NCBI GenBank assembly: GCA_964581365.1
Contig: CAZOOF010000005.1
Span: 12,872 to 76,871, forward strand
From: an uncultured Chromatiales bacterium
GTDB lineage: Bacteria; Pseudomonadota; Gammaproteobacteria; SZUA-140
Direction: 5' to 3'
DNA length: 64,000 nt
Shown: one piece after another, positions 4,782-35,027 of the stretch
Layout: every line of letters starts with the position of its first letter
Numbering within the stretch: the stretch's first letter is position 1
Program-made: the position numbers and the translations under genes
Notes under the pieces: model-generated
Told to the model about the DNA's origin: nothing
Database searches by the model: none
What the model saw: only the letters and a program-made list of their open reading frames with translations

Positions 4782-5258
4782 GTGATGTCGGAGCGGACGT
4801 GTCCGCGGGAGGATGACGTGATCGCTATGCATCGGGAGCTGCCTGTGCTCCGGCTGGAGGACCAGCATGGCGCGCTGGTGTCGACCTGGCAGTTCAAGCA
4901 CCAGCACCCACTGGTCATTGCGTTCCTTGGAGCGGACGCTTCCCTGGTCGCCAGCTTCACCGAACGAATCGACGGCTATCGCTCGGTCAATGCCCGGGTG
5001 CTGGCCGTAATGCAGGGGAGTCGGGCGGACGCTGGTCCGATTGATGCGCCGTTTCCCGTGCTTGCCGACGACCGCGGGGAGGTGACGTGCCGATATGCCG
5101 GCGTCGCGCCAGCGACCATCGTGACCGATGCCTACGGCGTGCTCGAAGGACTGTTCGCCGGACCGCCGGACCATGATCGGATCATCAGGCTCGTCCGGCG
5201 TCTGGAGATGCGCTGTCCCGAATGCGGCGTGCCGGAATGGCCGGCCGACACGCAGTAG
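4782..5258 (+). CDS. Thioredoxin-fold AhpC/TSA (peroxiredoxin)-like protein lacking the peroxidatic Cys, with a C-terminal CPECG motif
   Basis: LPVLRLEDQHGALVS...HPLVIAFLGADAS...FPVLADDRGEV...ATIVTDAYGVLEG follows the peroxiredoxin layout, but the FxxxCxxE cysteine is replaced by GADAS. It is divergent from the GT2 gene. Confidence 0.45.
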   Translation: MMSERTCPREDDVIAMHRELPVLRLEDQHGALVSTWQFKHQHPLVIAFLGADASLVASFTERIDGYRSVNARVLAVMQGSRADAGPIDAPFPVLADDRGEVTCRYAGVAPATIVTDAYGVLEGLFAGPPDHDRIIRLVRRLEMRCPECGVPEWPADTQ

Positions 5259-5389: not shown

Positions 5390-7933
5390 ATGCCTGTGTC
5401 TTCTCCCCAAGAGGACACCGCAAGGACACCATTCGGCCAGTCGTCGCATGAGCGCATGCGACATCTGGAAGCGCTTTATCGCCTGCTCGAACGCATGTAT
5501 CGGGCAGATTCCCTCTCCTGCATCTACACCGAGGCCGTCGAAGCGACACGGACTGCCCTCGATTGCGACGGTGTTGCGCTTCTGCTCGGCGATGAGGGTC
5601 GCGGATGGCGCTGCGCGGCGGCCATCGACTTCCCCGCCGAGTCCTGCCGCGCCCTGAGCCGATCGCTCCCCGGCCTGCGCGCCGGCCATGGTCCCGGACC
5701 CATATGCATCTGCCCACAGGCGGATGTCGATGCGGCTCTGCTCGACGCTTTGCAGCGCGAACGGCTGGAGTCGCTCTGTCTGGTTTCTCTCGTCGTGGAC
5801 GGATCGCCGCTGGGTGAGCTCGCAGCCGGCTTCCGTACACCGCGTGCTCTAGATCCCAGTGAGATCGAGGTCGCCAGTGCGATAGCCCGTCATCTGACGC
5901 TCGCCATGGAGCGCCAGATGGCGCAGGACCGTCTTCGAGAGAACGAAGAGCGGATCCGGCGCGAGCTGTCGGCTCGTCGGCGCGCGGAACATGCTTTGCG
6001 CGACAGTGAAAGCCGGCTCCGCTTCGCCCTCGAAGCCGGGCGCATGGGCACCTGGGAATGGAGTATCCATAGCGGCCGCATGGTGTGGTCACCGAGTCTC
6101 GAACGCATTCATGGCCTGCAGCCCGGCTCTTTCCCCGGCACCTTCGCCGCTTACGCGGATGACATGCATCCGGAAGATCGCGACGAGGTGCTCGCATCGA
6201 TCCATCGGGCGGTCGCCCGCAATATCGAGCATCGCATGGAATACCGGATCATCTGGCCCGACGGCAGCATCCATTGGGTGGAGGCGCGCGGGAGAGCATT
6301 CCTGGATGAAGATGGCGAGCCGGAGCGCATGATCGGGCTGTGCATGGACATCACCGAGCGCAAGCGGGTGGAGCAGCGGATCACCGCCCTCGGCAATGAT
6401 CTGCGCCGCCGGGTGGAGGAACTCGATGCCCTGCTCGAAGTGCTGCCGGTGGGGGTACTGGTCGCTCATGATCCGGATTGCCGGCATATCAGCATGAATC
6501 CGGCGGCTGCCGAACTGCTCGAGCTGCCCGTGCATGTGAACCCCTCGCGTACCGGGGAGCAGGCGGATCAGCTGCCGTTTCGCGTGCTGCGAGACGGATC
6601 GCCCGTCCCGCCCGAAGAGATGCCGATGCAGCGAGCGGCGCGGACGGGAAAGCCGGTGCGGGGTGAGATGCTCGAAATCGCTCTGGCCGATACCATCCGC
6701 TTCGAGTACATCACCGCCGTGCCCCTGTTCGATGACGGCGGGCGCGTGCGCGGCGCGTTGGGCGCAATGATCGACATGACCGAGCGCAAGCGCTTCGAGG
6801 ACGCATTGCGGGCCGCGGATCAGCGCAAGGACGAGTTCCTCGCCACGCTGGCGCACGAACTGCGCAATCCGCTGGCGCCGATACGCAACGCGATCGAGAT
6901 CCTGCGGCTGGGGCCGGACTCGAGCATAGATCCACGGGTTCCGCAGGGAGTTATCGATCGGCAGATCCGCCATATGACACGCCTGCTCGACGATCTGCTG
7001 GATGTGTCCCGGATTTCCTATAACAAGATCGAATTGCGTCGGGAACGCATCGAGTTCATGACGCCGGTGCAGAGTGCGCTGGAAACCAGCCGTCCACTGA
7101 TCGAGGAAAGAGGACACCGGTTCGTCGTTTCGATGCCGGAGGATGTGCTGTGGCTGTATGCGGATCCGGTGCGCCTGGCCCAGGTGTTTTCCAATCTGGT
7201 CAGTAATGCGGCCAAGTACACACCCGCCGGCGGTCTCATCGAGTTCGGTGCGGTACGCGAAGGGGATGAACTGCTGGTGTCGGTGAAGGATAACGGCGTC
7301 GGTATCTCGCCGGCGATGAGAAGCCAGATCTTCGGTATGTTTTCGCGCGGCAGCGGCTCGATCGAGCGTGCCGAAGGCGGGCTCGGTATCGGCCTTTCGC
7401 TGGCTCGCGCGCTGGTCGAACTGCATGGTGGCAGGATCGATGTGCGCAGTGAGGGAGAGGGCAGGGGCAGCGAATTCATGGTGCGTTTGCCGCTTGCATC
7501 AGGCATGGACCGCGGCGAGCCGGCTGATGCGGACTCGATGGAGCCGTCCGCTGCAGCTACTGCACGGCGCGTCCTGGTGGTGGATGATCTCAAGGACAGT
7601 GCCGACAGTCTGGCAGTGTTGCTCCGGGTCACGGGTAACAAGGCATGGACGGCTCACGATGGCAGAAGTGCGCTGGAAGCCGCCGAGCGCCTGCGTCCGG
7701 ACGTGGCGCTGCTCGATATCGGCATGCCCGATCTCGACGGTTACGAGGTGTGCCGTCGTATGCGCCAGACCCCGTGGGGCAGGGATATGATGCTGATTGC
7801 GCTGACTGGCTGGGGACAGGAAGGCGACCGGCGGAGGAGCCTGGAAGCAGGCTTCGATCACCATCTGGTCAAACCGGTAGAGATTCCCGCGCTGATGAGA
7901 CTGCTCGAACAGACGGGTGACGGGCAACCTTGA
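5390..7933 (+). CDS. Hybrid sensor histidine kinase (GAF-PAS-PAS-HisKA-HATPase_c-REC)
   Basis: GAF-like N-terminus, PAS segments (RFALEAGRMGTWEWSIHSGRMVWSP..., TERKR repeats), H-box LAHELRNPL, and G-boxes DNGVGIS...GGLGIGLSLAR. The C-terminal receiver has VLVVDD...LLDIGMPDLDGYEV...LIALTGWGQ...HLVKP. Confidence 0.88.
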   Translation: MPVSSPQEDTARTPFGQSSHERMRHLEALYRLLERMYRADSLSCIYTEAVEATRTALDCDGVALLLGDEGRGWRCAAAIDFPAESCRALSRSLPGLRAGHGPGPICICPQADVDAALLDALQRERLESLCLVSLVVDGSPLGELAAGFRTPRALDPSEIEVASAIARHLTLAMERQMAQDRLRENEERIRRELSARRRAEHALRDSESRLRFALEAGRMGTWEWSIHSGRMVWSPSLERIHGLQPGSFPGTFAAYADDMHPEDRDEVLASIHRAVARNIEHRMEYRIIWPDGSIHWVEARGRAFLDEDGEPERMIGLCMDITERKRVEQRITALGNDLRRRVEELDALLEVLPVGVLVAHDPDCRHISMNPAAAELLELPVHVNPSRTGEQADQLPFRVLRDGSPVPPEEMPMQRAARTGKPVRGEMLEIALADTIRFEYITAVPLFDDGGRVRGALGAMIDMTERKRFEDALRAADQRKDEFLATLAHELRNPLAPIRNAIEILRLGPDSSIDPRVPQGVIDRQIRHMTRLLDDLLDVSRISYNKIELRRERIEFMTPVQSALETSRPLIEERGHRFVVSMPEDVLWLYADPVRLAQVFSNLVSNAAKYTPAGGLIEFGAVREGDELLVSVKDNGVGISPAMRSQIFGMFSRGSGSIERAEGGLGIGLSLARALVELHGGRIDVRSEGEGRGSEFMVRLPLASGMDRGEPADADSMEPSAAATARRVLVVDDLKDSADSLAVLLRVTGNKAWTAHDGRSALEAAERLRPDVALLDIGMPDLDGYEVCRRMRQTPWGRDMMLIALTGWGQEGDRRRSLEAGFDHHLVKPVEIPALMRLLEQTGDGQP

Positions 7934-7986: not shown

Positions 7987-9222
7987 TTACTTCTTGATTT
8001 GCAACTCCACCCGGCGATTCGCCGCCCGGCCCTCGGCGGTGGCGTTGTCTGCCACCGGGCGGTCCGGACCGTAGCCCGCGGCGGTGAGGCGATCGGCGGC
8101 TACACCCTTGGAGATCAGGTATTCGCGAACGGTCTCGGCACGCTGCCGTGACAGGCGGAGGTTGAATTCCCGCGGTCCGGTGATGTCGGAGTGGCCACCG
8201 ACTTCGGCGGTGATCTCCGGATGCTTGAGCAGCGTTGCAGCCGTCTCATCCAGCACGGCCCGGGATTCGTCGAGCAGACGGGCTGAAGAGGTTTCGAAGT
8301 TCACCCCTTCCAGCGAGATGACTTCCTTGATCTCGCATCCACGCACGTCCACCTTGACTCCCGTGGCGGTGTCCGGGCAGCGATCGAGGCGGTCGACCAC
8401 GCCGTCGCCATCGCTGTCGATTTCACAACCGGAGGCATCCACCCTGGCGCCCGCGACGGTATCCGGACAGCGATCATCGACATCCGGTACGCCATCGCCG
8501 TCGGCATCGGGTTCGCAGCCGCGCTCATCCACGGCGGCGCCAGCGCGCGTACCGGGGCAGGCATCGCTATCATCCGGCACGCCGTCGCCGTCGGAGTCGG
8601 CGACCACGGGCGCCGGTTCCGGCTCGGCGACTGCGGCTACCGGGGCAGGGGCCGGCGCGGGTTCCGGCGCCGCGGAGCTGCGTCCGAAGGGAATATGCAG
8701 GCCCACGCTCACGACCCAGTCGCCGAAGCCATCGTCTTCGGTGGGAATGGTGTCATTGTCGCCATCCCAGCGATAGCGTACTTCGCCGCGCAGGCTCATC
8801 GAATCGCCCGCGCTGGTCAGGAAGCCAAGGCCGGCGTTGGCCATCAGATTGGTGGTGTTGTCGCCGGGCAGGCGATTGTGCATCGCGCCGGCGCCGATGA
8901 GAGCATAGGGGGAAAAACTGCGCTTGCGGCTGAAGAAGTACAGACCGTCGAGGGCGACACCGCGCTGCTGGTAGGCGCCGGCGCCATTCTCAAAGTCGAG
9001 ATTGTCCGCTTCGAGGTTGAGTTCGAGGTTCCAGCGCTCGCTCATTTCGCGACCGATGCCGATCTGAATGCCGAAATCGTCGTCGGCATTGCGATCATCA
9101 TCGGCGAACACATAGTTGAGTGCCGGGGCGATGTACCAGGAGCGCTGCTCCATGGCGTTGGCGCAGGACGAGCCGATGCCGAACGCTAAAACCGTACACA
9201 ATGCGGGGTACAATTTTGCCAC
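7987..9222 (-). CDS. OmpA-family outer-membrane protein with a thrombospondin type-3 Ca-binding repeat module
   Basis: GTG start 11 nt after AAGGGAG, then signal peptide VAKLYPALCTVLAFGIGSSCANA. An N-terminal beta-barrel is followed by a Pro/Ala/Glu linker and three D-x-D-G-D-G-V-x-D...C-P-D-T repeats. The OmpA C-like domain (NLRLSRQRAETVREYL...NRRVEL) closes the protein. Confidence 0.85.
   Translation of the reverse strand: MAKLYPALCTVLAFGIGSSCANAMEQRSWYIAPALNYVFADDDRNADDDFGIQIGIGREMSERWNLELNLEADNLDFENGAGAYQQRGVALDGLYFFSRKRSFSPYALIGAGAMHNRLPGDNTTNLMANAGLGFLTSAGDSMSLRGEVRYRWDGDNDTIPTEDDGFGDWVVSVGLHIPFGRSSAAPEPAPAPAPVAAVAEPEPAPVVADSDGDGVPDDSDACPGTRAGAAVDERGCEPDADGDGVPDVDDRCPDTVAGARVDASGCEIDSDGDGVVDRLDRCPDTATGVKVDVRGCEIKEVISLEGVNFETSSARLLDESRAVLDETAATLLKHPEITAEVGGHSDITGPREFNLRLSRQRAETVREYLISKGVAADRLTAAGYGPDRPVADNATAEGRAANRRVELQIKK
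8325..8598 (-). repeat. Intragenic tandem repeats encoding three thrombospondin type-3-like D-rich Ca-binding motifs
   Basis: DSDGDGVPDDSDACPGT / DADGDGVPDVDDRCPDT / DSDGDGVVDRLDRCPDT are each followed by G-C-E. The reverse strand shows this as a Ser-rich artefact ORF (8084..8776). Confidence 0.6.
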
Positions 9223-9447
9223 AATTATTTTTCTCCCTTCAGGTAATTTGGCTGGAGTCTTTGTGCTCCAGGCAACATGGAAGATGAGAGATAGCGCCAA
9301 TGATGTCAAGCGCCCCGGTGGTAGCGGTGAAACCGCTTGACGAAGCGCGAAGAGTGCTCGCCCGCGCGCGCAGCGGAGGTGTGTGAATGCTGGCCGGCAC
9401 AGGCGTGAACCAGCTCGATTGCAGGGGCCGGAGCAGGCTTCGCGGCG

Positions 9448-10065
9448 TCAGCTCGGTTCGAGCAGATACTCTTGCAGACCGTTGCGCAGCAGGATGCTGC
9501 GGGAGACTCGGAAGCCTGGAAATCTTTCCATGAGGCGTGTCAGCCCCTGTCTTGGACCCACGCGTTCCTCGTCTGTCCGTCGCCGCATGGCGATGCCACC
9601 CGGCTCGATGCGAAAAGCGTGGGGAACCCTCGGGATACGCGCCTGGGTGGAAATGAGAGCGTGCACGAGCAGTCGAGGAGATCCGATCGTTCGCAGGCGG
9701 TCCGCCAGTCGCGGCAGCTCGTCCGGAGGGATGTAGTCGAACAGCGTCCAGGCCAGAACCAGATCGAAACCCCGGCCGGGCGGCGCCGGAAGCAGTTCCG
9801 AAGGCAAGGGACAGCACGCGCCTTCATCATTGACAGCGCTGGCGTCGGCAATGAGCGTTTCCAGCGTATCGAACAGATCCGCAACGTGTACGCGGGAGGA
9901 AAAGCGGAGCAGGAATTCGATGTTGGCAGCGATGCCGGGGCCCAGGTCGAGTATGCAGTTGCCGGTACCAGGAAGCTTCTCTATCGCCGCCTCCAGTGCG
10001 AGCGAACGGAAAGGCGCGGCATCCGGAGGCGCGCCTTTCACCGGCATGGTGCCGCGGGCGGCCAT
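9448..10065 (-). CDS. Class I SAM-dependent methyltransferase
   Basis: Motif I ILDLGPGIAAN and motif DLVLAWTLFDY. Its start ATG shares one base with the bactofilin stop (TGATG). Confidence 0.6.
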   Translation of the reverse strand: MAARGTMPVKGAPPDAAPFRSLALEAAIEKLPGTGNCILDLGPGIAANIEFLLRFSSRVHVADLFDTLETLIADASAVNDEGACCPLPSELLPAPPGRGFDLVLAWTLFDYIPPDELPRLADRLRTIGSPRLLVHALISTQARIPRVPHAFRIEPGGIAMRRRTDEERVGPRQGLTRLMERFPGFRVSRSILLRNGLQEYLLEPS

Positions 10066-10547
10066 CAGCCGACGGCGGTGATGCGCTCCGGCTGAGGAGT
10101 ATCGTCCGAGGTTGATGGCTTATCCGGTGTCTCGGACTTGCGTTCGCCACGGCCTTCCATGTCGACGCTACCCCTGAAGGAGCATCCGTCTTCCATCGTC
10201 AGTCGCGGGGCCACGATGTTGCCGCGCACCACGCCGCTGGCGCGGATGATCACTTGCTCTTCGGCGTGCAGATTGCCGTCCACCTGGCCTTCGATACGGA
10301 TCACCTTCGCATGCGCGTCAGCGAGGAGGCGACCGTTCTTGCCTACCAGCACACTGTGCTGCCTGACGGTAATGGTTCCCTCCACCGTGCCCTCGATGGT
10401 GAGATTCTCATCGCCGGTCACATCTCCCTTGATGTGGATGGTAGAACCGATGACCGCCTGAACCCGTGGCTCCTGCGGAAGCCGATCGATGCTGGAGACG
10501 TTTGATGCGGCAGTATCATGCGCGGGACTATCCGATTTCCTGAACAT
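10065..10547 (-). CDS. Bactofilin (DUF583 polymer-forming cytoskeletal protein)
   Basis: Trimmed to MFRKS with GGAG 7 nt upstream. Repetitive beta-helix bactofilin core IGSTIHIKGDVTGDENLTIEGTVEGTITV...VLVGKNGRLLADAHAKVIRIEGQVDGNLHAEEQVIIRASGVVRGNIVAP..., then an acidic or Pro-rich tail. Confidence 0.8.
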   Translation of the reverse strand: MFRKSDSPAHDTAASNVSSIDRLPQEPRVQAVIGSTIHIKGDVTGDENLTIEGTVEGTITVRQHSVLVGKNGRLLADAHAKVIRIEGQVDGNLHAEEQVIIRASGVVRGNIVAPRLTMEDGCSFRGSVDMEGRGERKSETPDKPSTSDDTPQPERITAVG

Positions 10548-10698
10548 AATTTTCTCCGTCAGTAAGTCGTCAGTTTGCGCCTTACGACTGCAATCGTCGT
10601 GCCATCGGTCGGGATCAAACGGATTAAACTCGGAGCGCTGCTGGCTGTCTAATCCGGTATCCACTCCAAAACAGAGTGAAAGCTCTGGGGAGGAAACC

Positions 10699-11067
10699 AT
10701 GGAAACCGTTAGAACGCGTCTTGGTGTCATCCAGAATCTCGCTCTTACCGATCGTCTGCTGCGCCTGGTACTGACAGCGCTGCTGCTCGCCTGGCCCATG
10801 ATCGATCTGCTGGTGGCAGGCAATGTTCTGAACGGCTGGCATGCTGCTTCCTGGCTGGTCTCGGCGTATATCGGGCTGACCGGTTTCGTCGGCTGGGATC
10901 CGCTCTACCATCTGTTCGGCTACCGAAGCTGCTCGATCGATTCCGAACGGAACCAGTGCGGCACGCTCCCGTATCAGGTCGACGCCGCGATGGGGCATCA
11001 TCCGGTCCCGAAGCGGGATTTCGATCACAGCCTTGCGGGTGCGACTCATCCCGAGCGGAAGGACTGA
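10699..11067 (+). CDS. DUF2892 (YgaP-like) small inner-membrane protein
   Basis: Start METVRTRLG with GGAGGAAACC immediately upstream. Two TM segments and the conserved GWDPLYHLFGYRSC motif. The upstream part of the track ORF is non-coding. Confidence 0.6.
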   Translation: METVRTRLGVIQNLALTDRLLRLVLTALLLAWPMIDLLVAGNVLNGWHAASWLVSAYIGLTGFVGWDPLYHLFGYRSCSIDSERNQCGTLPYQVDAAMGHHPVPKRDFDHSLAGATHPERKD

Positions 11068-11110
11068 GCGGAGAGGAAAACTGGCCCCCGGAGTAGTGGG
11101 GGCCGCAGCT

Positions 11111-12193
11111 TCAATCGAGATGGCGGCGGGCGGCGCCGCTGTCGAGGATGGTGGCAACCGCGGCGGCCGCGCTTCTGAAGTCGGGATGGCGGCCGAGGTG
11201 CCAGAGGCAGAGTGCGGCCGCGGTGATGAGCGCATCCCGCGCCGGCCCGGACGCTCCCGAGAGTGCCGCGATTCCCTCTTCAGCTGCGGCACGCGCGGCG
11301 GCTTCTGCGTCGAACGCATCGGCCATGGACGGCAGTGGCGGCGGCGTGATGCCACCGTCAAAGCCGAAGTCGGCCGGTTGTAATTCGACTTCTTCACGGT
11401 CCCCATCCTTTACACGAAGCACGCGTCCAGTCTGCCTGAGCGAAGGAATGATGCCGCCCTCGACGCCGCGGACGATCAGCGCCGAGTCGAAACCAGCCGC
11501 GCGGGCGAGGAGGGCATAGATCCGCGGATAAGCTTTGTGCACATAGCCGGTGACCAGATGCGTGCGGCCGCGCGCCCGCACCGGACCAAGCAGTTTTTCG
11601 ATGGTGGTCAGCGCAGGACGCTTGATCATCAGGGTGCGCAGCGGTGTCAGCTCATGCAGTGCGGGACAAAAAGCGCTTTGATCGAGGTAGGCCCAACCGA
11701 GCGCCGGATCCTCGATGCGGGCGACCGCTTCCTGGACCGTGCAGTCCACGCGCTGGTCCGCCGCCGCGAGCACCTGTCGCGGGGTCACCCCGAATTTGGG
11801 TCCCATCGCCGCGACGCCGTGGATCACCGCGTGCACGCCGCAGGCGGCAAGAACCGCGCCGAGAAACGGAGATACCGGAAGCCCGCGGTTGAAGCCGTCG
11901 TACGGATCGGCAAGATCGACCAGCTCGTCCACATCGGCGCTGCCTGCTTCGCTGGCCGCGCGCAATGCATCGAGGATGCCGAGATACTCGTCGTCGGTTT
12001 CGCGCTTCATGCGCAGGGCGATGAGGAAGATCGCCGCCTGTACCGGGTCGATTGCTCCATCGAGAATCGCCTTCATGCCGTCCCGGGCTTCCTGGCGCGA
12101 AATGTCCCTGGACAGCTCCGGGCCGGTGGCGATGCGCTGGATGATGGAATGCATCAGTTCGCGGGCGGCGGCAGGCTCGTTCGGTGATGGCAT
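11111..12193 (-). CDS. Glycosyl-transferase family 3 / anthranilate phosphoribosyltransferase-like protein (TrpD2/YbiB group)
   Basis: N-terminal helical domain E..A..M..I..G..D.VQ.AAFLIAL..K.ET.DE and a C-terminal Rossmann-like domain. The catalytic GTGGD of true TrpD is replaced by DLADPYDGF. Confidence 0.65.
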   Translation of the reverse strand: MPSPNEPAAARELMHSIIQRIATGPELSRDISRQEARDGMKAILDGAIDPVQAAIFLIALRMKRETDDEYLGILDALRAASEAGSADVDELVDLADPYDGFNRGLPVSPFLGAVLAACGVHAVIHGVAAMGPKFGVTPRQVLAAADQRVDCTVQEAVARIEDPALGWAYLDQSAFCPALHELTPLRTLMIKRPALTTIEKLLGPVRARGRTHLVTGYVHKAYPRIYALLARAAGFDSALIVRGVEGGIIPSLRQTGRVLRVKDGDREEVELQPADFGFDGGITPPPLPSMADAFDAEAAARAAAEEGIAALSGASGPARDALITAAALCLWHLGRHPDFRSAAAAVATILDSGAARRHLD

Positions 12194-29253: not shown

Positions 29254-30621
29254 TCAGTTCTTTGCGGATTTCGCGCTGCGGAAAGTTTCCGGATTGAGAT
29301 GGTAGCGATGCAGCAGCTTGTACAGTTCGGTTCGGTTGCGCTGCGCCAGCCGCGCTGCCTGCGTGATGTTGCCTTCGGTCATCTTGAGCAGGCGCATCAG
29401 GTACTCGCGCTCGAAGTTGCGGCGGGCGGCCGACAGCGAGGGCAGCGCGCCCGTCTTCAGCCGCAGCGCGCGTTGCACCAGGCTGAGCGGGATCACCGCA
29501 GTAGTGCACAGCGTGGCGGAGTACTCGACCACGTTCAGCAGCTGGCGCACGTTGCCGGGCCAAGGCGCGGTGACCAGCCGCTCCATCGCTTCGGGCGCGA
29601 AGGACTGCGCCTGGGTATCGCCATTGGCAGCGATTTCACGCAGGAAATGGTTGGCCAGCAGCTGCACGTCCTCTGGCCGTTCGCGCAGCGGTGGAATATC
29701 CAGCCGCACGACGTTGAGGCGATAGTAGAGATCCTCGCGAAACTGGCGTCCCTTCACCAGCTCGTCGAGATCGTGATGGCTGGCGGAGATGATGCGCACA
29801 TCTACCGGGATATTGGCGGTGGCGCCGACCGGACGCACTTCCTTCTCTTCGAGCACGCGCAGCAGTTTCGCCTGCAGCTGCAGGGGCATGTCGCCGATCT
29901 CATCGAGGAAGAGAGTGCCGCCCTCGGCGGCCTGGAACAGACCCTTGTGGTCGCGCGTGGCGCTGGTGAATGCGCCCTTGTTGTGCCCGAACAGCTCTGA
30001 TTCGAGCAGCGATTCGGGGATCGCGCTGCAGTTCAGACCGAGGAAGGGACGATCGCGCCGGGGGCCGGCCTTGTGTATGGCCCGTGCCAGCAGTTCCTTG
30101 CCGGTGCCGCTTTCACCATGGATCAACACCGCCGCGCTGCTGTCTGCGACCCGGCGCGCCTGTTTGAGCAGTTCGTCCATGACGGCGCTGCGGCTGATGA
30201 TCTCGCTGCTCCAATCCCCGCGCTCGCCGCCGTTCTCGTTGTTGACGACCCCGCTGATGCGCAGCGCGCGATTGATGTGATCGAGCAGGTCCTTGCTGTC
30301 GAAGGGCTTGGTGAGGAAGGTGAAGACGCCCCTCTTGGTTGCTTCTACCGCCTCGGGAATCGTGCCATGGGCGGTGAGAATGATCACCGGCAGGGTGGAG
30401 AAGCGCTCGTGCACGATGTCGAAGAACGCCATGCCATCCATGCCATCCATGCGCAGATCGGTGACAACGACCTGCGGCTGCCGCTCCTCGAGCAGAGCCA
30501 GCGCGCTTTCCGCGCTGTCGGCGGTCATCACCTCCCAGCCGGCGGTGTTCAGCCGGATGGAGAGCAGTCTGAGCAGATCGGGATCATCGTCTACCAGAAG
30601 AATCCTTGGTCGCATGGTCAT
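29254..30621 (-). CDS. glrR: Sigma-54-dependent response regulator GlrR/QseF (NtrC family)
   Basis: REC (ILLVDDDPDLLRLL...DLRMDGMDGMAFF...VIILTAHGTIPEAVEATKRGVFTFLTKP), an AAA+ sigma-54 activation domain (VLIHGESGTGKELLARAIH, GAFTSA, ESELFGH) and a C-terminal HTH (TELYKLLHRYHLNPETF). Near-colinear with E. coli GlrR. Confidence 0.9.
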   Translation of the reverse strand: MTMRPRILLVDDDPDLLRLLSIRLNTAGWEVMTADSAESALALLEERQPQVVVTDLRMDGMDGMAFFDIVHERFSTLPVIILTAHGTIPEAVEATKRGVFTFLTKPFDSKDLLDHINRALRISGVVNNENGGERGDWSSEIISRSAVMDELLKQARRVADSSAAVLIHGESGTGKELLARAIHKAGPRRDRPFLGLNCSAIPESLLESELFGHNKGAFTSATRDHKGLFQAAEGGTLFLDEIGDMPLQLQAKLLRVLEEKEVRPVGATANIPVDVRIISASHHDLDELVKGRQFREDLYYRLNVVRLDIPPLRERPEDVQLLANHFLREIAANGDTQAQSFAPEAMERLVTAPWPGNVRQLLNVVEYSATLCTTAVIPLSLVQRALRLKTGALPSLSAARRNFEREYLMRLLKMTEGNITQAARLAQRNRTELYKLLHRYHLNPETFRSAKSAKN

Positions 30622-30638
30622 GCTGCAGTACCTTCCTT

Positions 30639-31247
30639 CTAGGGTGCCTGTATCGGTTCGGGGCCGCCGCGTTCCCGCAGCTGCTCCTCGATGGCCTTGA
30701 GTTCGTCGAGCTGACGCTGCAGCGTCTCATTCTGCGTGGCCAGCCGGCCGATCGTGCGCGCGTTCTCGTCGAGGATCCGCAGGATCACCCGGGCAAACGG
30801 CGCCAGGGGATGCGTGCCGGTGTCCTCGAGCTGCCGGCGGATCTCGTCGTGGACGCGGGCCGCTGCCGCCCGGTCGCCGACCCGTAAAGTGGTCAGCAGC
30901 CCAAGCCGGACCAGATCGTCGAAGTCCCCGCTTTGCTCGTAATCGGTTCTCGCCTGCTGATACAGCCTGTTGCGCGCATCTTCCGCCGCTTCGAGCCAAG
31001 CGTCCGCAAACTGTATCACGAGCGATTCCGGCGCGGGATCCGGCACATCGCTACCCTCGTCGATCGATGGCGCCGGAGGGGCAGGATCCGCGATATCGTC
31101 GGCTTCGGGCAATTCTTCGCTTGTCTGCGGAGGAGGACTCTCGACGACTGGCGGAAGTTCCGCCGGCTCGCGCGAGTCGGGAATCAGTGCGCATGCCGTC
31201 AGCACCAGCAGTGCGCCCAGTGTAGCGAACCTAAGGGGAATTCTCAT
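30639..31247 (-). CDS. qseG: QseG/YfhG-like lipoprotein encoded between the kinase and the regulator
   Basis: Start MRIPLRFATLGALLVLTACALIPDS (lipobox) overlaps the kinase stop by 17 nt in another frame. Pro- and acidic-rich linker, then a helical C-terminal domain. Position and size match yfhG/qseG. Confidence 0.55.
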   Translation of the reverse strand: MRIPLRFATLGALLVLTACALIPDSREPAELPPVVESPPPQTSEELPEADDIADPAPPAPSIDEGSDVPDPAPESLVIQFADAWLEAAEDARNRLYQQARTDYEQSGDFDDLVRLGLLTTLRVGDRAAAARVHDEIRRQLEDTGTHPLAPFARVILRILDENARTIGRLATQNETLQRQLDELKAIEEQLRERGGPEPIQAP

Positions 31248-32766
31248 GCGACCGATCGGCCGCCTGTGGGGGTTGCGTATCGCAAGGCAGCGACACTCTG
31301 AAATGTGCACCGTGGCGGGTCGGGATGACCTCGATGGTGCCGTTGTGGAGGTGGACGAATTCCCGAGTGATCGAAAGTCCCAGTCCGGTGCCCTTGACGG
31401 GGCCGCTTGCGCGTGCGCGTCCCTGGTAGAAGGCATTGAAGATCCTGATCCTTTCATCCTCGTCGACGCCGGGACCTTCGTCCTGGACATCGATGACGGC
31501 GCGACCCTGGCGGCCGGTCAGCGATACCGTGACGCGGCCGTTGACGGGAGAGTACTTTACGGCATTGGAGATGAGATTGTCCACCACGCTGCGCAGCTTG
31601 TCGCGATCTCCAGCCACCGCGACCGGTTCCAGTTGTGTCTCTATGACGACTGATTTGGCGCGCGCCGGAAGCCGGTAGCCACTGATCACGTCGCCGATGA
31701 GCTGGTCCAGCATCAGCGGCTGCTGACGGACACGCAGCACATCGCGTTCCAGAATGCTGAAGCTCAGCAGGTCCTCGATCAGTTTCTGCAGGCGCAGGCT
31801 GTTCTGGCGCAGCATCGCGGCGATCTCGGCCTGTTCTGCATTGAGGGGGCCCACCAGCTGCTCACTGAGCAGATCGCTGCCTTCGCGAATCGTCGTCAGC
31901 GGGGTCTTCAGCTCGTGGGACATATGGCGCAGAAACATCAACTTCTGGTTTTCCAGAGTGAGAATGCGTCGACGCATCCATTCGAGACGCGCGCCGAGCT
32001 CACGCAGATCGTTGGGTCCGCTGATACTGATCTCGCGCTCGAACTGTCCGTCGCCGAGGCGGCGGATCGCCTGATGGAGGCGCCGCATGGGTTTGATGAT
32101 CAGAGCCGTAAACAGCATGAACAGCACGATGGCGAGGGGTATCAGGCTCATGGTCTGCCAGAAGAGCAGGTTCTGTGCGCGTCGCGCGAGCTGCTGAAGT
32201 TCATTGACGCTTTCACCGATGAGGTTGCTGCTTTCGGCGAGGATCGCCCGTGCCGCGGAGTTCAGCGTAGGGAAGGATTCGATCGCTGCCGCAATCGCCT
32301 GTGCATCCGATGACGGGTCATCCAGCAGGCGGAAGACGGTCTGCTCATGCTCGGCGATCGCGGAGATTGCATCCTGTTGCGACGATGACAGGTCTTTCAG
32401 TCCGCTGGCGAGCTGCTGGAACTGATGATGCCGGTCGCGATAGACCTCGAGCAGCGCGCGATCGTTCAGCACCTGAAACTGGCGCGCGCTGCGTTCCATG
32501 GAAATAAGGTGCTCGACCAGCATCCGGCTCGACTGGGTGGCGGCGACTGCCTCGAATACGCTGCGCTGAGCATGCTTGCTGAGACGGTCGACATAGATTG
32601 CCGCGGTGAGCAACGCGATGATCAGCGGCACCATCACCAGGATGAAGCTGATCAGAATGAGCTGGAGAATGGATCGGGTTCTAAGGAAGCTCACGCGCAG
32701 CCACGCCGTTTCGCCCGGCCGGTCTGCGATGTCCGGCATCCAGATGGCATATGCGCAGAATAGCAT
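31231..32766 (-). CDS. glrK: Sensor histidine kinase GlrK/QseE
   Basis: Two TM helices flank a periplasmic domain, then HAMP. H-box FLRHMSHELKTPLTTIREGSDLLSEQLVGPLNAEQAEIAAMLRQNSLRLQKLIEDLL closely matches E. coli GlrK, followed by HATPase_c. The true start may be the second Met (MPDIADRP..., about 32739). Confidence 0.85.
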   Translation of the reverse strand: MLFCAYAIWMPDIADRPGETAWLRVSFLRTRSILQLILISFILVMVPLIIALLTAAIYVDRLSKHAQRSVFEAVAATQSSRMLVEHLISMERSARQFQVLNDRALLEVYRDRHHQFQQLASGLKDLSSSQQDAISAIAEHEQTVFRLLDDPSSDAQAIAAAIESFPTLNSAARAILAESSNLIGESVNELQQLARRAQNLLFWQTMSLIPLAIVLFMLFTALIIKPMRRLHQAIRRLGDGQFEREISISGPNDLRELGARLEWMRRRILTLENQKLMFLRHMSHELKTPLTTIREGSDLLSEQLVGPLNAEQAEIAAMLRQNSLRLQKLIEDLLSFSILERDVLRVRQQPLMLDQLIGDVISGYRLPARAKSVVIETQLEPVAVAGDRDKLRSVVDNLISNAVKYSPVNGRVTVSLTGRQGRAVIDVQDEGPGVDEDERIRIFNAFYQGRARASGPVKGTGLGLSITREFVHLHNGTIEVIPTRHGAHFRVSLPCDTQPPQAADRSHENSP

Positions 32767-32769
32767 ATG
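32742..32769. promoter_or_regulatory. 10-bp perfect inverted repeat TGGCATATGC-N8-GCATATGCCA spanning the glrK start codon
   Basis: Read directly on the minus strand as tGGCATATGC TATTCTGC GCATATGCCa. It could be an operator or a 5' stem-loop affecting kinase translation. Confidence 0.4.
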
Positions 32770-32826
32770 CCATGTCGGACCGGCAGGCGCGGCGCCTGCG
32801 CGCCGCGCCGTCCATGATCAGCTAGA

Positions 32827-33069
32827 TCAGGGCTGCGAGCTGCCCTGGGGCGGGGTATCCATGTCGGACCCGGTTGTGCTGTCGCCGAACGGCGATCCGG
32901 TATCCGGTGCGCTTTCCTCGGGCATGGTCTGCGGCGCTGTCGTGGTATCCCGATCCATGATCGAACCCGGTTGCGTGTCCGTCTGCGGAGTCTGTCCATC
33001 ACCACCGCCGCAGGCGCTCAGCATCAGCGCCAGGGCAGCTGCACCCAAGGTGGCTATTGTCCGGTTCAT
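32827..33069 (-). CDS. Small acidic Ser/Thr/Pro/Asp-rich lipoprotein (80 aa)
   Basis: AGGAG 8 nt upstream of the ATG. MNRTIATLGAAALALMLSACGGGDG has a lipobox, and the rest is low-complexity and acidic. Confidence 0.45.
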   Translation of the reverse strand: MNRTIATLGAAALALMLSACGGGDGQTPQTDTQPGSIMDRDTTTAPQTMPEESAPDTGSPFGDSTTGSDMDTPPQGSSQP

Positions 33070-33118
33070 CGATGATCTCCTGTCTGCATATTCGTCATGA
33101 TCGTAGTCGCCTGCGCCA

Positions 33119-33150
33119 TAAAGCCGGCCGGGAGAACACCCGGCCGGCCG
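33119..33150 (-). terminator. Rho-independent-type terminator after the first EF-hand gene
   Basis: Perfect 10-bp stem GCCGGCCGGG / CCCGGCCGGC with a 6-nt loop, followed on the minus strand by TTTAT. Confidence 0.5.
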
Positions 33151-33172
33151 ACTCCCACATCACGGTCTGTCG

Positions 33173-33508
33173 TTACATGCCACCGTCGGTCGTACCACCC
33201 GTGCCATCCATCCCGGGGTCGCTGCCCAGGCCCGGATCGCTGGGCATGGAGCTGCCCGAGCCGCTGGCGCTGTCATACTCGTCCTGACTCAGTGAACCGG
33301 AACCGTCGCTGTCAGCGCTTTCCCAGTCCAAGCTGATGCCGGCGGCAGCGGCTTCCTCGCGGCTGATCTGACCATCAGCATCCGAATCAACCTGATCGAA
33401 CGAGGGGCTGGAGGCGCCGGGGACCGGCGGCACATCGCTCTGAGCGATGACCTGGGCGGTAGCGAAGGTAAGTGCCGCCGCGGCGGCCAGAGCAATTGCA
33501 GGTTTCAT
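33173..33508 (-). CDS. Secreted EF-hand Ca-binding protein (paralog 1)
   Basis: Trimmed to MKPAIALAAAAALTFATAQVIAQSD with GAGGAG upstream. EF-hand loops DSDADGQISREE and DSDGSGSLSQDE, then an acidic Ser/Gly-rich tail. Confidence 0.65.
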   Translation of the reverse strand: MKPAIALAAAAALTFATAQVIAQSDVPPVPGASSPSFDQVDSDADGQISREEAAAAGISLDWESADSDGSGSLSQDEYDSASGSGSSMPSDPGLGSDPGMDGTGGTTDGGM

Positions 33509-33599
33509 GGGATTCTCCTCTTCCGTGAGTGAAAAACAGCGGTATGCGGCTCGCGACCGGTTCGATGCCCGCAAGGGCGTCGCCGGGTCGCTGTCCGAG

Positions 33600-33866
33600 C
33601 TACATGCTGGAGCTTGAATCCTGAGTCGCGCTTTCGTATTCCTCCCGGGTCAGCGAGCCGTCGCCATCCGGATCGGCTTCCTCCCAGTTGATGCTGATGC
33701 CAGCCGAATCCAGTTCTTCGCGCGTGACCTGGCCGTCACCATCGCTGTCCACTTCATCGAAGCTCTTGTGATCGCCGGCGGCCAACTGCAGCTCGTCGGC
33801 ATGCAACACACCGGCCGCACCGAAACTGAGAGCGAGGGCGGCGGCTGCAGAAATGATGGTTTTCAT
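33600..33866 (-). CDS. Secreted EF-hand Ca-binding protein (paralog 2)
   Basis: AAGAGGAG upstream. Signal peptide MKTIISAAAALALSFGAAGVLHA and canonical loops DSDGDGQVTREE and DPDGDGSLTREE. Confidence 0.7.
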   Translation of the reverse strand: MKTIISAAAALALSFGAAGVLHADELQLAAGDHKSFDEVDSDGDGQVTREELDSAGISINWEEADPDGDGSLTREEYESATQDSSSSM

Positions 33867-33925
33867 GTGCGTCTCCTCTTGCGTAAATGGATGGTTCGAG
33901 CGGGCCGGCTGGCCCGCCTGATATG

Positions 33926-33943
33926 TAACAACTATCGTGCCAC
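33926..33943 (-). promoter_or_regulatory. Sigma-54 (-24/-12) promoter TGGCACGATAGTTGT upstream of the EF-hand gene
   Basis: Perfect -24 TGGCAC and correct spacing to -12 TTGT (consensus TTGC). The predicted TSS is about 50 nt before the ATG. Confidence 0.5.
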
Positions 33944-34007
33944 GCGCACGAATTCCTTATGGAATAGACTCTTGCGCTCGCCGGACGAAGCCGGCTCCGG
34001 TGGTTTC

Positions 34008-34093
34008 TGTCGGTCCGGAGCGACGCGGAAAACACAGGGTTTCGCCAAGCGCCTGAAGCGATGAGCGATTCGAGCTGTCGTCGCGGAGAGACG
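34008..34093 (-). promoter_or_regulatory. Two TGTC-N10-GACG motifs (putative GlrR-type enhancer-binding-protein sites) about 70-150 bp upstream of the sigma-54 promoter
   Basis: TGTCggtccggagcGACG (about 34008-34025) and TGTCgtcgcggagaGACG (about 34076-34093). They resemble the TGTC-N10-GACA GlrR sites described upstream of enterobacterial glmY. Confidence 0.4.
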
Positions 34094-34130
34094 GGGGGAG
34101 ATGAGGGGAACAACGAAGAGCAGAGAGGGT

Positions 34131-34160
34131 GAAAGCGGAGTTCGTGCTGTTTCCGCTTTC
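34131..34160. terminator. Perfect hairpin terminator downstream of the RRM-protein gene
   Basis: GAAAGCGGA-N11-TCCGCTTTC (9-bp stem), followed on the minus strand by a pyrimidine-rich run. Confidence 0.5.
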
Positions 34161-34187
34161 ACATGGAGCCTGGTCCCGATGTCTTGC

Positions 34188-34457
34188 CTATCTTCGCCTG
34201 CCGCCCCGTCGCTGTTTGCCGGCATCGTCGAAGCGCACGCGCAGTGATTTGCCGCCGTATTCCTTGCCATCCAGTGCGGCGACTGCGGCACGGGCTTCAT
34301 GCCCTTCCATCTCGACGAAACCGAAGCCGCGGCATTTGCGGGTAAAGACGTCGAAGGCGAGATGCACCGAGCGCACCTTGCCGAATCCGGAGAAGAGGTT
34401 TCCCAGATCTTCCTCTGAAGTGTCCTGGGGCAGATTGCTGATGAACATTTTTTTCAC
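34188..34457 (-). CDS. RRM (RNP-1/RNP-2) RNA-binding protein with an Arg/Gly-rich tail
   Basis: RNP-2 MFISNL, RNP-1 RGFGFVEM and a C-terminal RRGGRRR. Confidence 0.8.
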   Translation of the reverse strand: MKKMFISNLPQDTSEEDLGNLFSGFGKVRSVHLAFDVFTRKCRGFGFVEMEGHEARAAVAALDGKEYGGKSLRVRFDDAGKQRRGGRRR

Positions 34458-34526
34458 GGCGCGCCTCCCGGTCGCTGTCGTTGTGAGTGTATGCGCGTAC
34501 CCGGAAGCGCGCTTGAAATGCGGAGA

Positions 34527-34553
34527 ACCCGCGGCAGCCTCTGGCCGCCGCGG
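34527..34553. other. GC hairpin between the cold-shock and RRM genes (attenuator/terminator candidate)
   Basis: CCCGCGGC-N8-GCCGCGGG, a perfect 8-bp stem with no clear U-tract. Confidence 0.3.
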
Positions 34554-34567
34554 GCAAGAGGGCGGAA

Positions 34568-34774
34568 TCAGAGCTGAACGGAGACTTGCGTTGCCTGCGG
34601 ACCCTTGTTTCCGGTTTCGACCTCGAACGCTACGTTCTGGCCTTCCTGTAACGTTCGGAATCCGCGTCCCTGAATCGCGGAGTAGTGGACGAACACATCC
34701 GCGCCGCCATCAGTCGGCGAAATAAAACCGTAGCCCTTGGCTTCATTGAACCACTTTACCGTGCCTGTCTTCAT
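34568..34774 (-). CDS. Cold-shock protein (CspA family)
   Basis: 68 aa, [34 protein letters not shown], with RNP motifs KGYGFI and VFVHY. About 250 nt of 5' leader precede it, as is typical for csp genes. Confidence 0.9.
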
Positions 34775-35027
34775 TGAATCACCTCTGTCGTCGAACGATC
34801 AAACCGTTCAATCGCAAGTCTCGTCACGTTCCGTGGATTCGTTGCGTGATGTGAACAGAAGAGCGGAATGTTGCAATTGAACGTTCCTCCGGTAAATAAG
34901 GCTCCGCGAAATTGAACGGGCCGTACCTCGGCGACTATAGGCGCATCATTTGGTCATTGCAATACAGGAAAACCCTAAGGATGCGTAAGAGCGAGGAGGA
35001 GGAACGAGCCGGAAAAGAAGCAGGATT

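Follow-up and report, generated by a model that had tools for sequence, protein, structure and literature searches.

A qseEGF (glrK-qseG-glrR) locus of an uncultured gammaproteobacterium with an adjoining predicted sigma-54 promoter upstream of secreted EF-hand protein genes

The DNA analysed here (hereafter the window) is a 64-kb stretch of contig CAZOOF010000005.1 from an uncultured Chromatiales bacterium. Its minus strand carries genes for a sensor kinase, a lipoprotein and a sigma-54 enhancer-binding regulator that resemble the QseE(GlrK)-QseG-QseF(GlrR) system, next to two genes for small secreted EF-hand proteins (EF1 and EF2) that are preceded by a predicted sigma-54 promoter and two GlrR-like boxes. 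In the order of transcription, the locus comprises EF2, EF1, a gene for a small acidic lipoprotein, the kinase gene, the gene for a 202-aa lipoprotein and the sigma-54 regulator gene, all on the minus strand. Positions below are those of the window.

29254-34093, minus strand: qseE/glrK-qseG-qseF/glrR operon with the upstream EF-hand genes and the promoter region
29254-30621, minus strand: qseF/glrR-like gene, sigma-54 enhancer-binding response regulator of 455 aa (domains and NCBIfam)
30639-31247, minus strand: qseG-like gene, outer-membrane lipoprotein of 202 aa with the lipobox LTAC (profile search)
31231-32766, minus strand: qseE/glrK-like gene, sensor histidine kinase of 511 aa (domains and identity to E. 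coli GlrK)
32827-33069, minus strand: small acidic lipoprotein of 80 aa with the lipobox LSAC (open reading frame)
33117-33149, minus strand: terminator-like hairpin 3' of EF1, 11-bp GC stem followed by UUUAU (RNA folding)
33173-33508, minus strand: EF1, secreted two-EF-hand protein of 111 aa with a Gly/Ser/Asp-rich tail (EF-hand_5)
33600-33866, minus strand: EF2, secreted two-EF-hand protein of 88 aa, heading the predicted sigma-54 transcription unit (EF-hand_1, EF-hand_7)
33928-33942, minus strand: predicted sigma-54 (-24/-12) promoter TGGCACGATAGTTGT, predicted start site near 33916
34008-34025, minus strand: proximal GlrR/QseF-like box CGTCGCTCCGGACCGACA (minus-strand sequence), 83 bp upstream of TGGCAC
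34076-34093, minus strand: distal GlrR/QseF-like box CGTCTCTCCGCGACGACA (minus-strand sequence), 151 bp upstream of TGGCAC

The kinase gene overlaps the start of qseG by 17 nt, and the true start of the kinase may lie a few codons downstream of the annotated one. The locus occurs with identical proteins on at least 23 metagenome contigs, and it therefore belongs to a real and recurrent uncultured gammaproteobacterium.

Homology to the qseEGF system

The glmY-glrK-qseG-glrR region of Escherichia coli MG1655 served as the reference for comparison. The regulator displays REC, Sigma54_activat, AAA_lid_14 and HTH_8 domains (Pfam), its top NCBIfam model is GlrR (582.8 bits, the runner-up being NtrC with 430.9), and it shares 54% identity with E. 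coli GlrR over 449 aa, i.e. the full length. Its recognition helix, RNRTELYKLL, matches that of the family and of E. coli GlrR. This helix is almost invariant (RNRTE[LF]YKLL) in E. coli, in the window's clade and in the distant loci that carry the promoter module described below, so that a single motif can be used across all loci. The kinase has HAMP, HisKA and HATPase_c domains (Pfam) and shares 34% identity with E. coli GlrK over 427 aa, from E. coli residue 58 onward, an alignment that includes the periplasmic sensor. There, the MERSARQ stretch of the kinase aligns with MERSYRQ of E. coli, R92 and R95 corresponding to R70 and R73, two residues of QseE that contact QseG in the published QseG-QseE structure (PMC12691602). 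Residues E91, R92 and Q96 are invariant among 15 homologues, and homologues of the kinase have been annotated as GlrK by the Joint Genome Institute (JGI).

The lipoprotein encoded in between had no match in Pfam or NCBIfam and gave no significant BLASTP alignment with E. coli QseG. The open reading frame (ORF) located between the kinase and regulator genes was extracted from 78 homologous loci, nearly all of which encode a lipobox at this place, and a profile was built from 66 of the products. This profile matched E. coli QseG with 36.8 bits (E-value of 2.5e-13 for one target), the best of 1000 shuffled QseG sequences reaching 14.1 bits, and a profile made without the window's clade matched the window lipoprotein with 48.7 bits. 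Both alignments take in the C-terminal KLE.L..IE..L..R helix; the residue matching R214 of enteric QseG is a Glu in the window lipoprotein.

The homologies of the regulator, the kinase and the profile-linked lipoprotein thus identify the three genes as a qseEGF system, which by its sequence is predicted to work as a three-component system. An earlier, sequence-only reading of this DNA had proposed that the three genes are colinear with E. coli GlrK-QseG-GlrR and that the helix-turn-helix of the regulator resembles that of GlrR; both proposals are borne out, the recognition helix being the same as that of E. coli. The qseEGF cluster has been described in 2025 as widespread in Gammaproteobacteria, Betaproteobacteria and Acidithiobacillia, qseG always being located in the middle (PMC12691602).

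The promoter module and its recurrence beside qseEGF

The gap between EF2 and the preceding gene, which encodes an RRM-type protein, is 321 bp long and contains the promoter and both boxes. The promoter, TGGCACGATAGTTGT, reads from 33942 to 33928 and is one of two exact matches to TGGCAC-N5-TTGY in the 64 kb, with GT at the -12 element in place of the consensus GC. Some 50 nt beyond the promoter comes the EF2 ORF with its conserved Shine-Dalgarno sequence, and RNA folding places a GC hairpin at the predicted 5' end of the EF2 transcript. The published GlrR site is TGTCN10GACA, and at glmY it stands over 100 bp ahead of the sigma-54 promoter (PMC3045617); the motif scan applied to E. coli as a control recovered the glmY promoter and its three known GlrR sites. 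TGTC-N10-GAC occurs only three times in the whole window, where shuffled sequences lead to expect 8.6 matches, and two of the three lie upstream of the sigma-54 promoter, at 34008-34024 and 34076-34092. The sequence-only reading had pointed to a near-consensus sigma-54 promoter ahead of the distal EF-hand gene and to two GlrR-like motifs upstream of it; these were indeed recovered, the motifs standing 83 and 151 bp from the promoter. Binding of the regulator to these boxes and dependence of the EF2 promoter on RpoN would be expected from this arrangement.

A further sigma-54 promoter, TGGCACGACGATTGCA, is a perfect match and lies in the region 10547-10604 (minus strand), with ca. 45 nt between it and the start codon (ATG) of a bactofilin-like ORF (10065-10547). 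As GlrR-type boxes are lacking there, a different activator is expected for this promoter.

Close relatives of the locus were found via exact-protein look-ups of kinase homologues, and their kinases are 91% (L092), 75% (L093), 67% (L094), 63% (L095 and L097) and 54% (L096) identical to that of the window. One or two EF-hand genes are located directly upstream of the kinase gene in L092, L093, L095 and L097. When the gap of ca. 320 bp was aligned four ways, invariance was confined to the Shine-Dalgarno sequence, the two promoter elements (-24 and -12) and the four half-sites, and the box spacers had diverged like the remainder of the gap. The half-sites of both boxes are kept in L092, L093 and L095; the promoter TGGCACGATAGTTGT is unchanged in L092, and its position is conserved in L093 and L095. 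In L095 both boxes are perfect (TGTCGCCGCCTAGCGACA and TGTCGCACTTTCCCGACA, at -160 and -93). In L094 (5590-6010), the RRM gene abuts the kinase gene with no module between them, synteny being otherwise identical; this locus has neither the module nor the EF-hand genes, which implies a recent gain or loss of the cassette inside the clade.

Beyond the clade, scanning a single genome of each species yielded at least 80 loci from Gamma- and Betaproteobacteria, with kinases 32-47% identical among the matches listed. All of those long enough show a kinase gene, a gap of ca. 600 bp and a GlrR-like regulator gene. The full set comprised 87 qseEGF loci, each taken with 7 kb on either side (ca. 1 Mb). 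A strict module was defined as a sigma-54 promoter with at most one mismatch together with at least two TGTC-N10-GACA boxes, each with at most one mismatch. Under this definition, 35 modules were found in 31 of the 80 loci, while 20 dinucleotide-shuffled sets yielded 0 to 2 each (mean 0.2). The box consensus derived from them is TGTCGC-N6-GCGACA. The two boxes are most often 65 bp apart (63-68), and 70-114 bp separate the proximal one from TGGCAC, a family geometry into which the 68 and 83 bp of the window fit. A geometry-constrained model retrieved 39 modules in 36 of the 87 loci and none in the reversed-sequence control. In most cases the module directly follows the regulator gene and has the same orientation, and a few modules are divergent; in the window's clade, in Halomonadaceae and in E. 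coli, the module precedes the kinase gene in the same orientation.

The product of the promoter-proximal gene is almost always a small protein with a signal peptide. EF-hand proteins form the largest target class, as checked with Pfam, accounting for no fewer than 13 of the 39 modules and distributed over unrelated lineages, namely uncultured Gammaproteobacteria, Lysobacterales, Salinisphaera, Pseudohongiella, Methylovorus, Methylophilaceae, Burkholderiales and Sulfuriferula. Small secreted ORFs that encode a pair of EF loops number 20 in the 87 loci; 19 of them lie within ca. 1.5 kb of the operon, and the twentieth has a module of its own. Other targets are as follows.

L024:10780-11298 and L026:6075-6617 (Methylophilaceae), L042:~10644-11138 (metagenome-assembled genome of Burkholderiales): secreted fusions, made of two EF hands and then a BON domain
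Janthinobacterium, Oxalobacteraceae, Herbaspirillum, Roseateles: BON proteins
L052 and L073, with L017 and L030 by sequence resemblance to L073: SlyB-like glycine-zipper 2TM proteins
L073: MlaC
L014: CsbD
L064, with L088 by resemblance to L064: MdoG/OpgG

The fusion proteins link the EF-hand and BON classes. The sequence-only reading had seen in the window a rewired regulon. Protein targets do occur instead of glmY, but the situation is not a one-off: a protein-coding envelope target beside the operon, most commonly an EF-hand protein, is the usual state outside Enterobacteriaceae, and glmY may represent a derived one.

Among the loci with EF-hand genes, L059 (5520-6900, minus strand) has three tandem paralogous genes for 76-aa secreted EF-hand proteins that are divergent from qseE, and two perfect GlrR-type boxes occur between them and the kinase gene.

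The EF-hand proteins and the glmY position

EF1 and EF2 each have a signal peptide and two canonical 12-residue EF loops of the type D-x-[DNS]-x-[DNS]-G-x-[ILV]-x-x-x-E, and they are 49% identical to each other. Both pass Pfam cut-offs, EF1 with EF-hand_5 (28.5 bits, cut-off 25.9) and EF2 with EF-hand_1 (41.5 bits, cut-off 25.4) and EF-hand_7 (33.5 bits, cut-off 30). The sequence-only reading, which placed a small acidic lipoprotein and two paralogous EF-hand proteins with signal peptides at the position of glmY, is thereby upheld. The loops of EF1, DSDADGQISREE and DSDGSGSLSQDE, start 25 residues apart, and those of EF2 are DSDGDGQVTREE and DPDGDGSLTREE; 13 residues lie between the loops in either protein. 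In all 15 QseF-associated EF-hand proteins examined, loop starts are 23-28 residues apart. The AlphaFold model of EF2 (predicted local distance difference test, pLDDT, of 77-90 over residues 32-85) forms a helix-loop-helix pair with a short beta bridge, and Foldseek matched it to calmodulin lobes and lanmodulin (LanM) with a probability of 0.96-0.99, the E-values being weak (~0.03), as is usual for a domain of 55 residues. EF1 and EF2 are the only small secreted two-EF-loop ORFs in the window. A homologue search with EF2 retrieved only eight close relatives, as short EF-hand proteins share few exact words; the association of EF-hand genes with qseEGF was established from the DNA loci and not from this search. 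In the periplasm, both proteins would be expected to bind a hard cation, be it Ca2+ or another. Elsewhere in the window (7987-9309, minus strand), an OmpA-family protein with three thrombospondin-type-3-like DxDxDGxxD...CP repeats is another predicted Ca-binding envelope protein.

Lanmodulin is distinguished by EF hands that are 12-13 residues apart, compared with ca. 25 in Ca-responsive EF-hand proteins, and by a Pro at loop position 2 (PMC10232371). EF1 and EF2 are likewise small, secreted and acidic and have the 13-residue spacing. The Pro is found in loop 2 of EF2 (DPDGDG), where it is kept in L092 and L093, and is absent from EF1. In a profile alignment, EF2 also matches lanmodulin 6mi5 without gaps over two loops, whereas alignment to Entamoeba CaBP requires insertions of 7-14 residues. 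LanM, a protein of methylotrophs with picomolar selectivity for lanthanides, has four EF hands, however, and each of these proteins has two; loop position 9 is Thr or Ser instead of Asp; the NCBIfam LanM model gives 37.0 bits for EF2 and 22.9 for EF1, far below its cut-off of 135; and no lanthanide-uptake or xoxF genes were seen in the window context. On account of the number of hands, position 9 and the scores, an assignment of EF1 and EF2 as lanmodulins was rejected.

In the E. coli system, the target sRNAs GlmY and GlmZ control glmS. At the position that glmY occupies in E. coli, no GlmY/GlmZ or other credible RNA family was detected between 32500 and 34800 (Rfam, E-value up to 10), and in the whole window only a tRNA, with no GlmY/GlmZ, reached the Rfam gathering score. 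The predicted 5' untranslated region (UTR) of EF2 is only ca. 50 nt long, and the gaps between EF2 and EF1 and between EF1 and the lipoprotein region measure 91 and 103 nt. The suggestion that a GlmY-like RNA might be embedded here, also part of the sequence-only reading, is consequently not supported, whereas its statement that EF-hand genes occupy the glmY position agrees with a promoter that is predicted to drive a protein-coding gene.

Candidates for small RNAs (sRNAs) were met in other loci. In the Halomonadaceae Kushneria and Salinicola (L087:6240-7010 and L072:6100-7010), qseE is directly preceded, on its own strand, by a sigma-54 promoter that has GlrR-type boxes; L087 has three of these, in the arrangement known from E. 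coli glmY. The 350-450 nt after the promoter contain no credible ORF and end in a conserved ACCCTTCAGTTCCCTGCGTA motif and a canonical terminator; they are a candidate for a QseF-dependent sRNA in the position of glmY. In L096 (4880-5760; Ectothiorhodospiraceae bacterium 2226, CP054689), two sigma-54 promoters precede qseE. The one at 4968 is followed by ca. 270 nt and a strong terminator, a further candidate sRNA, and the one at 5451 would drive, in place of EF-hand genes, the gene of a 71-aa acidic secreted protein; the motif GGyCCAGGATGGssCCACAC is common to both transcripts. None of the candidate regions in L072, L087, L096 and L059 matched Rfam.

The 80-aa lipoprotein encoded between EF1 and the kinase gene matched no Pfam or NCBIfam family; it is 81% identical in L092 and its N-terminus is kept in L093. 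The U-tract of the hairpin after EF1 is weak, and read-through into the small lipoprotein gene and qseEGF is possible. RNA folding also revealed a strong GC hairpin devoid of a U-tract 3' of the small lipoprotein gene (~32786-32809). Upstream of the promoter region, a cold-shock protein gene (34774-34568, minus strand) is followed by the RRM-type RNA-binding protein gene (34457-34188). The 5' UTR of the cold-shock gene (34525-34800, minus strand) partially matches the cspA thermoregulator with 61.8 bits, below the gathering score of 78, the match being cut by the boundary of the search.

Proposed regulation and relation to known systems

We propose, with a probability of roughly 0.75, that the locus encodes a QseE(GlrK)-QseG-QseF(GlrR) envelope-sensing system whose direct target promoter adjoins it and drives the secreted EF-hand genes. 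By homology to the enterobacterial system, QseG would bind and activate the periplasmic sensor of the kinase, which would phosphorylate the sigma-54 enhancer-binding regulator. The latter would bind the two TGTC-N10-GACA-type boxes, 83 and 151 bp upstream, and activate RpoN-dependent transcription of EF2 and EF1. The products would be exported by Sec, their compact pairs of EF loops binding Ca2+ or another hard cation in the periplasm. Should the terminator after EF1 be leaky, transcription may continue into the small lipoprotein gene and qseEGF, resulting in positive feedback. The likely role would be protection of the outer membrane and periplasm or cation buffering, to judge from what else the module drives, namely BON, SlyB-like glycine-zipper, MlaC, CsbD and OpgG proteins. 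E. coli QseF also activates the P2 promoter of rpoE upon lipopolysaccharide (LPS) defects (PMC6358824), which together with the envelope-acting targets suggests an envelope-integrity response in which the EF-hand proteins would buffer or deliver a cation.

The proposed regulatory link is strong because it combines the footprint in the clade, the non-random recurrence of the module beside qseEGF and the near-invariant recognition helix; the central idea of the sequence-only reading, that of a GlrK-QseG-GlrR homologue with an adjacent sigma-54/GlrR-box promoter driving EF-hand genes, is on these predictions retained. Several observations weigh against it. The regulator remains below the NCBIfam GlrR equivalog cut-off (582.8 against 763 bits) and its sigma-54 contact loop is GAFTSA and not GAFTGA. 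The -12 element of TGGCACGATAGTTGT is GT, while all 35 strict modules elsewhere have GC. Each box has one mismatch to TGTC-N10-GACA (CGTC on one half), and the boxes agree with the extended consensus at only 9 and 10 of its 12 positions. No IHF-like site was detected between the boxes and the promoter (consensus with up to two mismatches). Finally, L094, with a kinase 67% identical, has no EF-hand genes, so that the pairing with qseEGF is dispensable.

The imperfect boxes could mean that some other enhancer-binding protein, whose gene lies elsewhere in the genome, acts on the sigma-54 promoter and that the resemblance to GlrR sites is coincidental, all the more as the inspected DNA is 64 kb of the genome and such proteins may lie beyond it. 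This is improbable given that the box-box-promoter geometry occurs beside qseEGF in 36 of 87 loci of distant lineages and never in the control, that the module stays beside qseE in the window's clade, and that the recognition helix equals that of E. coli GlrR, whose sites share the consensus. The off-consensus -12 element and boxes might even be non-functional, the EF-hand genes being ordinary neighbours under an unrecognised sigma-70 promoter. A promoter scan of 32500-34800 found no sigma-70-like promoter, however, conservation among diverged relatives is confined to the half-sites and the -24/-12 elements, and the module recurs widely, which makes this explanation very improbable. That a GlmY-like sRNA embedded upstream of the kinase gene is the true regulatory output, as in Enterobacteriaceae, appears scarcely credible: the position is equivalent to that of glmY, and in Halomonadaceae and L096 qseE-adjacent sigma-54 promoters do precede non-coding stretches ending in terminators, but the RNA searches described above were negative, the EF2 ORF, with a conserved Shine-Dalgarno sequence, comes ca. 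50 nt after the promoter, and the intergenic gaps leave too little room.

An extension of the proposed target-promoter reading, rather than a substitute for it, would make the EF-hand proteins periplasmic feedback modulators or co-sensors of kinase and QseG, comparable to ZraP for ZraSR or CpxP for CpxAR, and would make the system responsive to Ca2+ or another cation. A gene for a small periplasmic metal-binding protein beside, and controlled by, a sigma-54 two-component operon recalls the ZraPSR layout, and the adjacency of EF-hand genes and qseEGF is more persistent than a simple regulon member would need. BON, glycine-zipper, MlaC or OpgG proteins are nevertheless found at the same place elsewhere, as expected of interchangeable effectors, and L094 lacks EF-hand genes, so that such a role is rather unlikely.

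The spread of qseEGF had already been published; what appears to be new are the protein-coding targets of the module, and these are general and not specific to this genome. In enteric bacteria, the known direct targets of QseF are glmY/glmZ and rpoE P2, and the mechanism by which envelope or LPS defects are sensed has been stated to be open (PMC6358824). Francke et al. merely list a "QseF-like" group of activators (PMC3162934), and the structural paper of 2025 treats the genes flanking qseEGF as non-conserved (PMC12691602). In the literature searched, which did not extend to subscription journals, nothing was found that links GlrR/QseF to EF-hand proteins or describes its targets outside Enterobacteriaceae. 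QseEF/GlrKR has been studied almost only in enteric pathogens, and a recognisable promoter module now reads out its targets in dozens of lineages. As these are all periplasmic or outer-membrane stress proteins, hypotheses on the signal narrow to envelope integrity, osmotic state and cation status. The module further supplies simple reporters and flags a compact family of periplasmic two-EF-hand proteins with lanmodulin-like spacing. More tentatively, one may speculate that QseEGF, ancestrally and across most Proteobacteria, serves outer-membrane and periplasm homeostasis, with an adjacent cassette-like gene for a small envelope protectant as its immediate output (a compact EF-hand protein of LanM-like spacing or a BON, SlyB-like, MlaC or OpgG protein), that glmY and the candidate sRNAs of Halomonadaceae are later replacements, and that the EF-hand output points to a cation signal. 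If so, the divalent or trivalent cation status of the envelope (e.g. Ca2+ bridging of LPS) would be the long-sought variable behind QseE/GlrK signalling and the two-EF-hand "half-lanmodulins" would constitute a new class of periplasmic metal buffers.

Among known systems, the calcium regulon of Pseudomonas aeruginosa likewise ties a two-component system to small periplasmic Ca2+-homeostasis proteins, including a secreted EF-hand protein, EfhP. CarSR is of the OmpR type and acts with sigma-70, CarO and CarP are not EF-hand proteins, and we know of no report that places EfhP under sigma-54 or QseF control. ZraPSR of E. coli and Salmonella is a sigma-54 two-component system whose main target is the adjacent gene of a small periplasmic metal-binding envelope-stress protein, and the window locus similarly sets such a system beside a small, predicted metal-binding periplasmic target. 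ZraPSR differs in that kinase and regulator belong to another family and no accessory lipoprotein is involved, in that ZraP is a zinc-binding chaperone and not an EF-hand protein, and in that its gene is divergent and not co-directional. Compared with QseEGF of E. coli and Salmonella, the predicted target is an mRNA for two secreted EF-hand proteins and not the sRNA GlmY, two boxes ca. 68 bp apart replace the three found at glmY, neither an overlapping sigma-70 promoter nor an IHF site was detected, glnB and purL do not flank the locus, and QseG has diverged beyond the reach of Pfam and BLAST. The two nonetheless share, immediately upstream and co-directional, a sigma-54 target promoter with TGTC-N10-GACA boxes over 80 bp ahead of it, besides homologous proteins and the gene order of kinase, lipoprotein and sigma-54 regulator.

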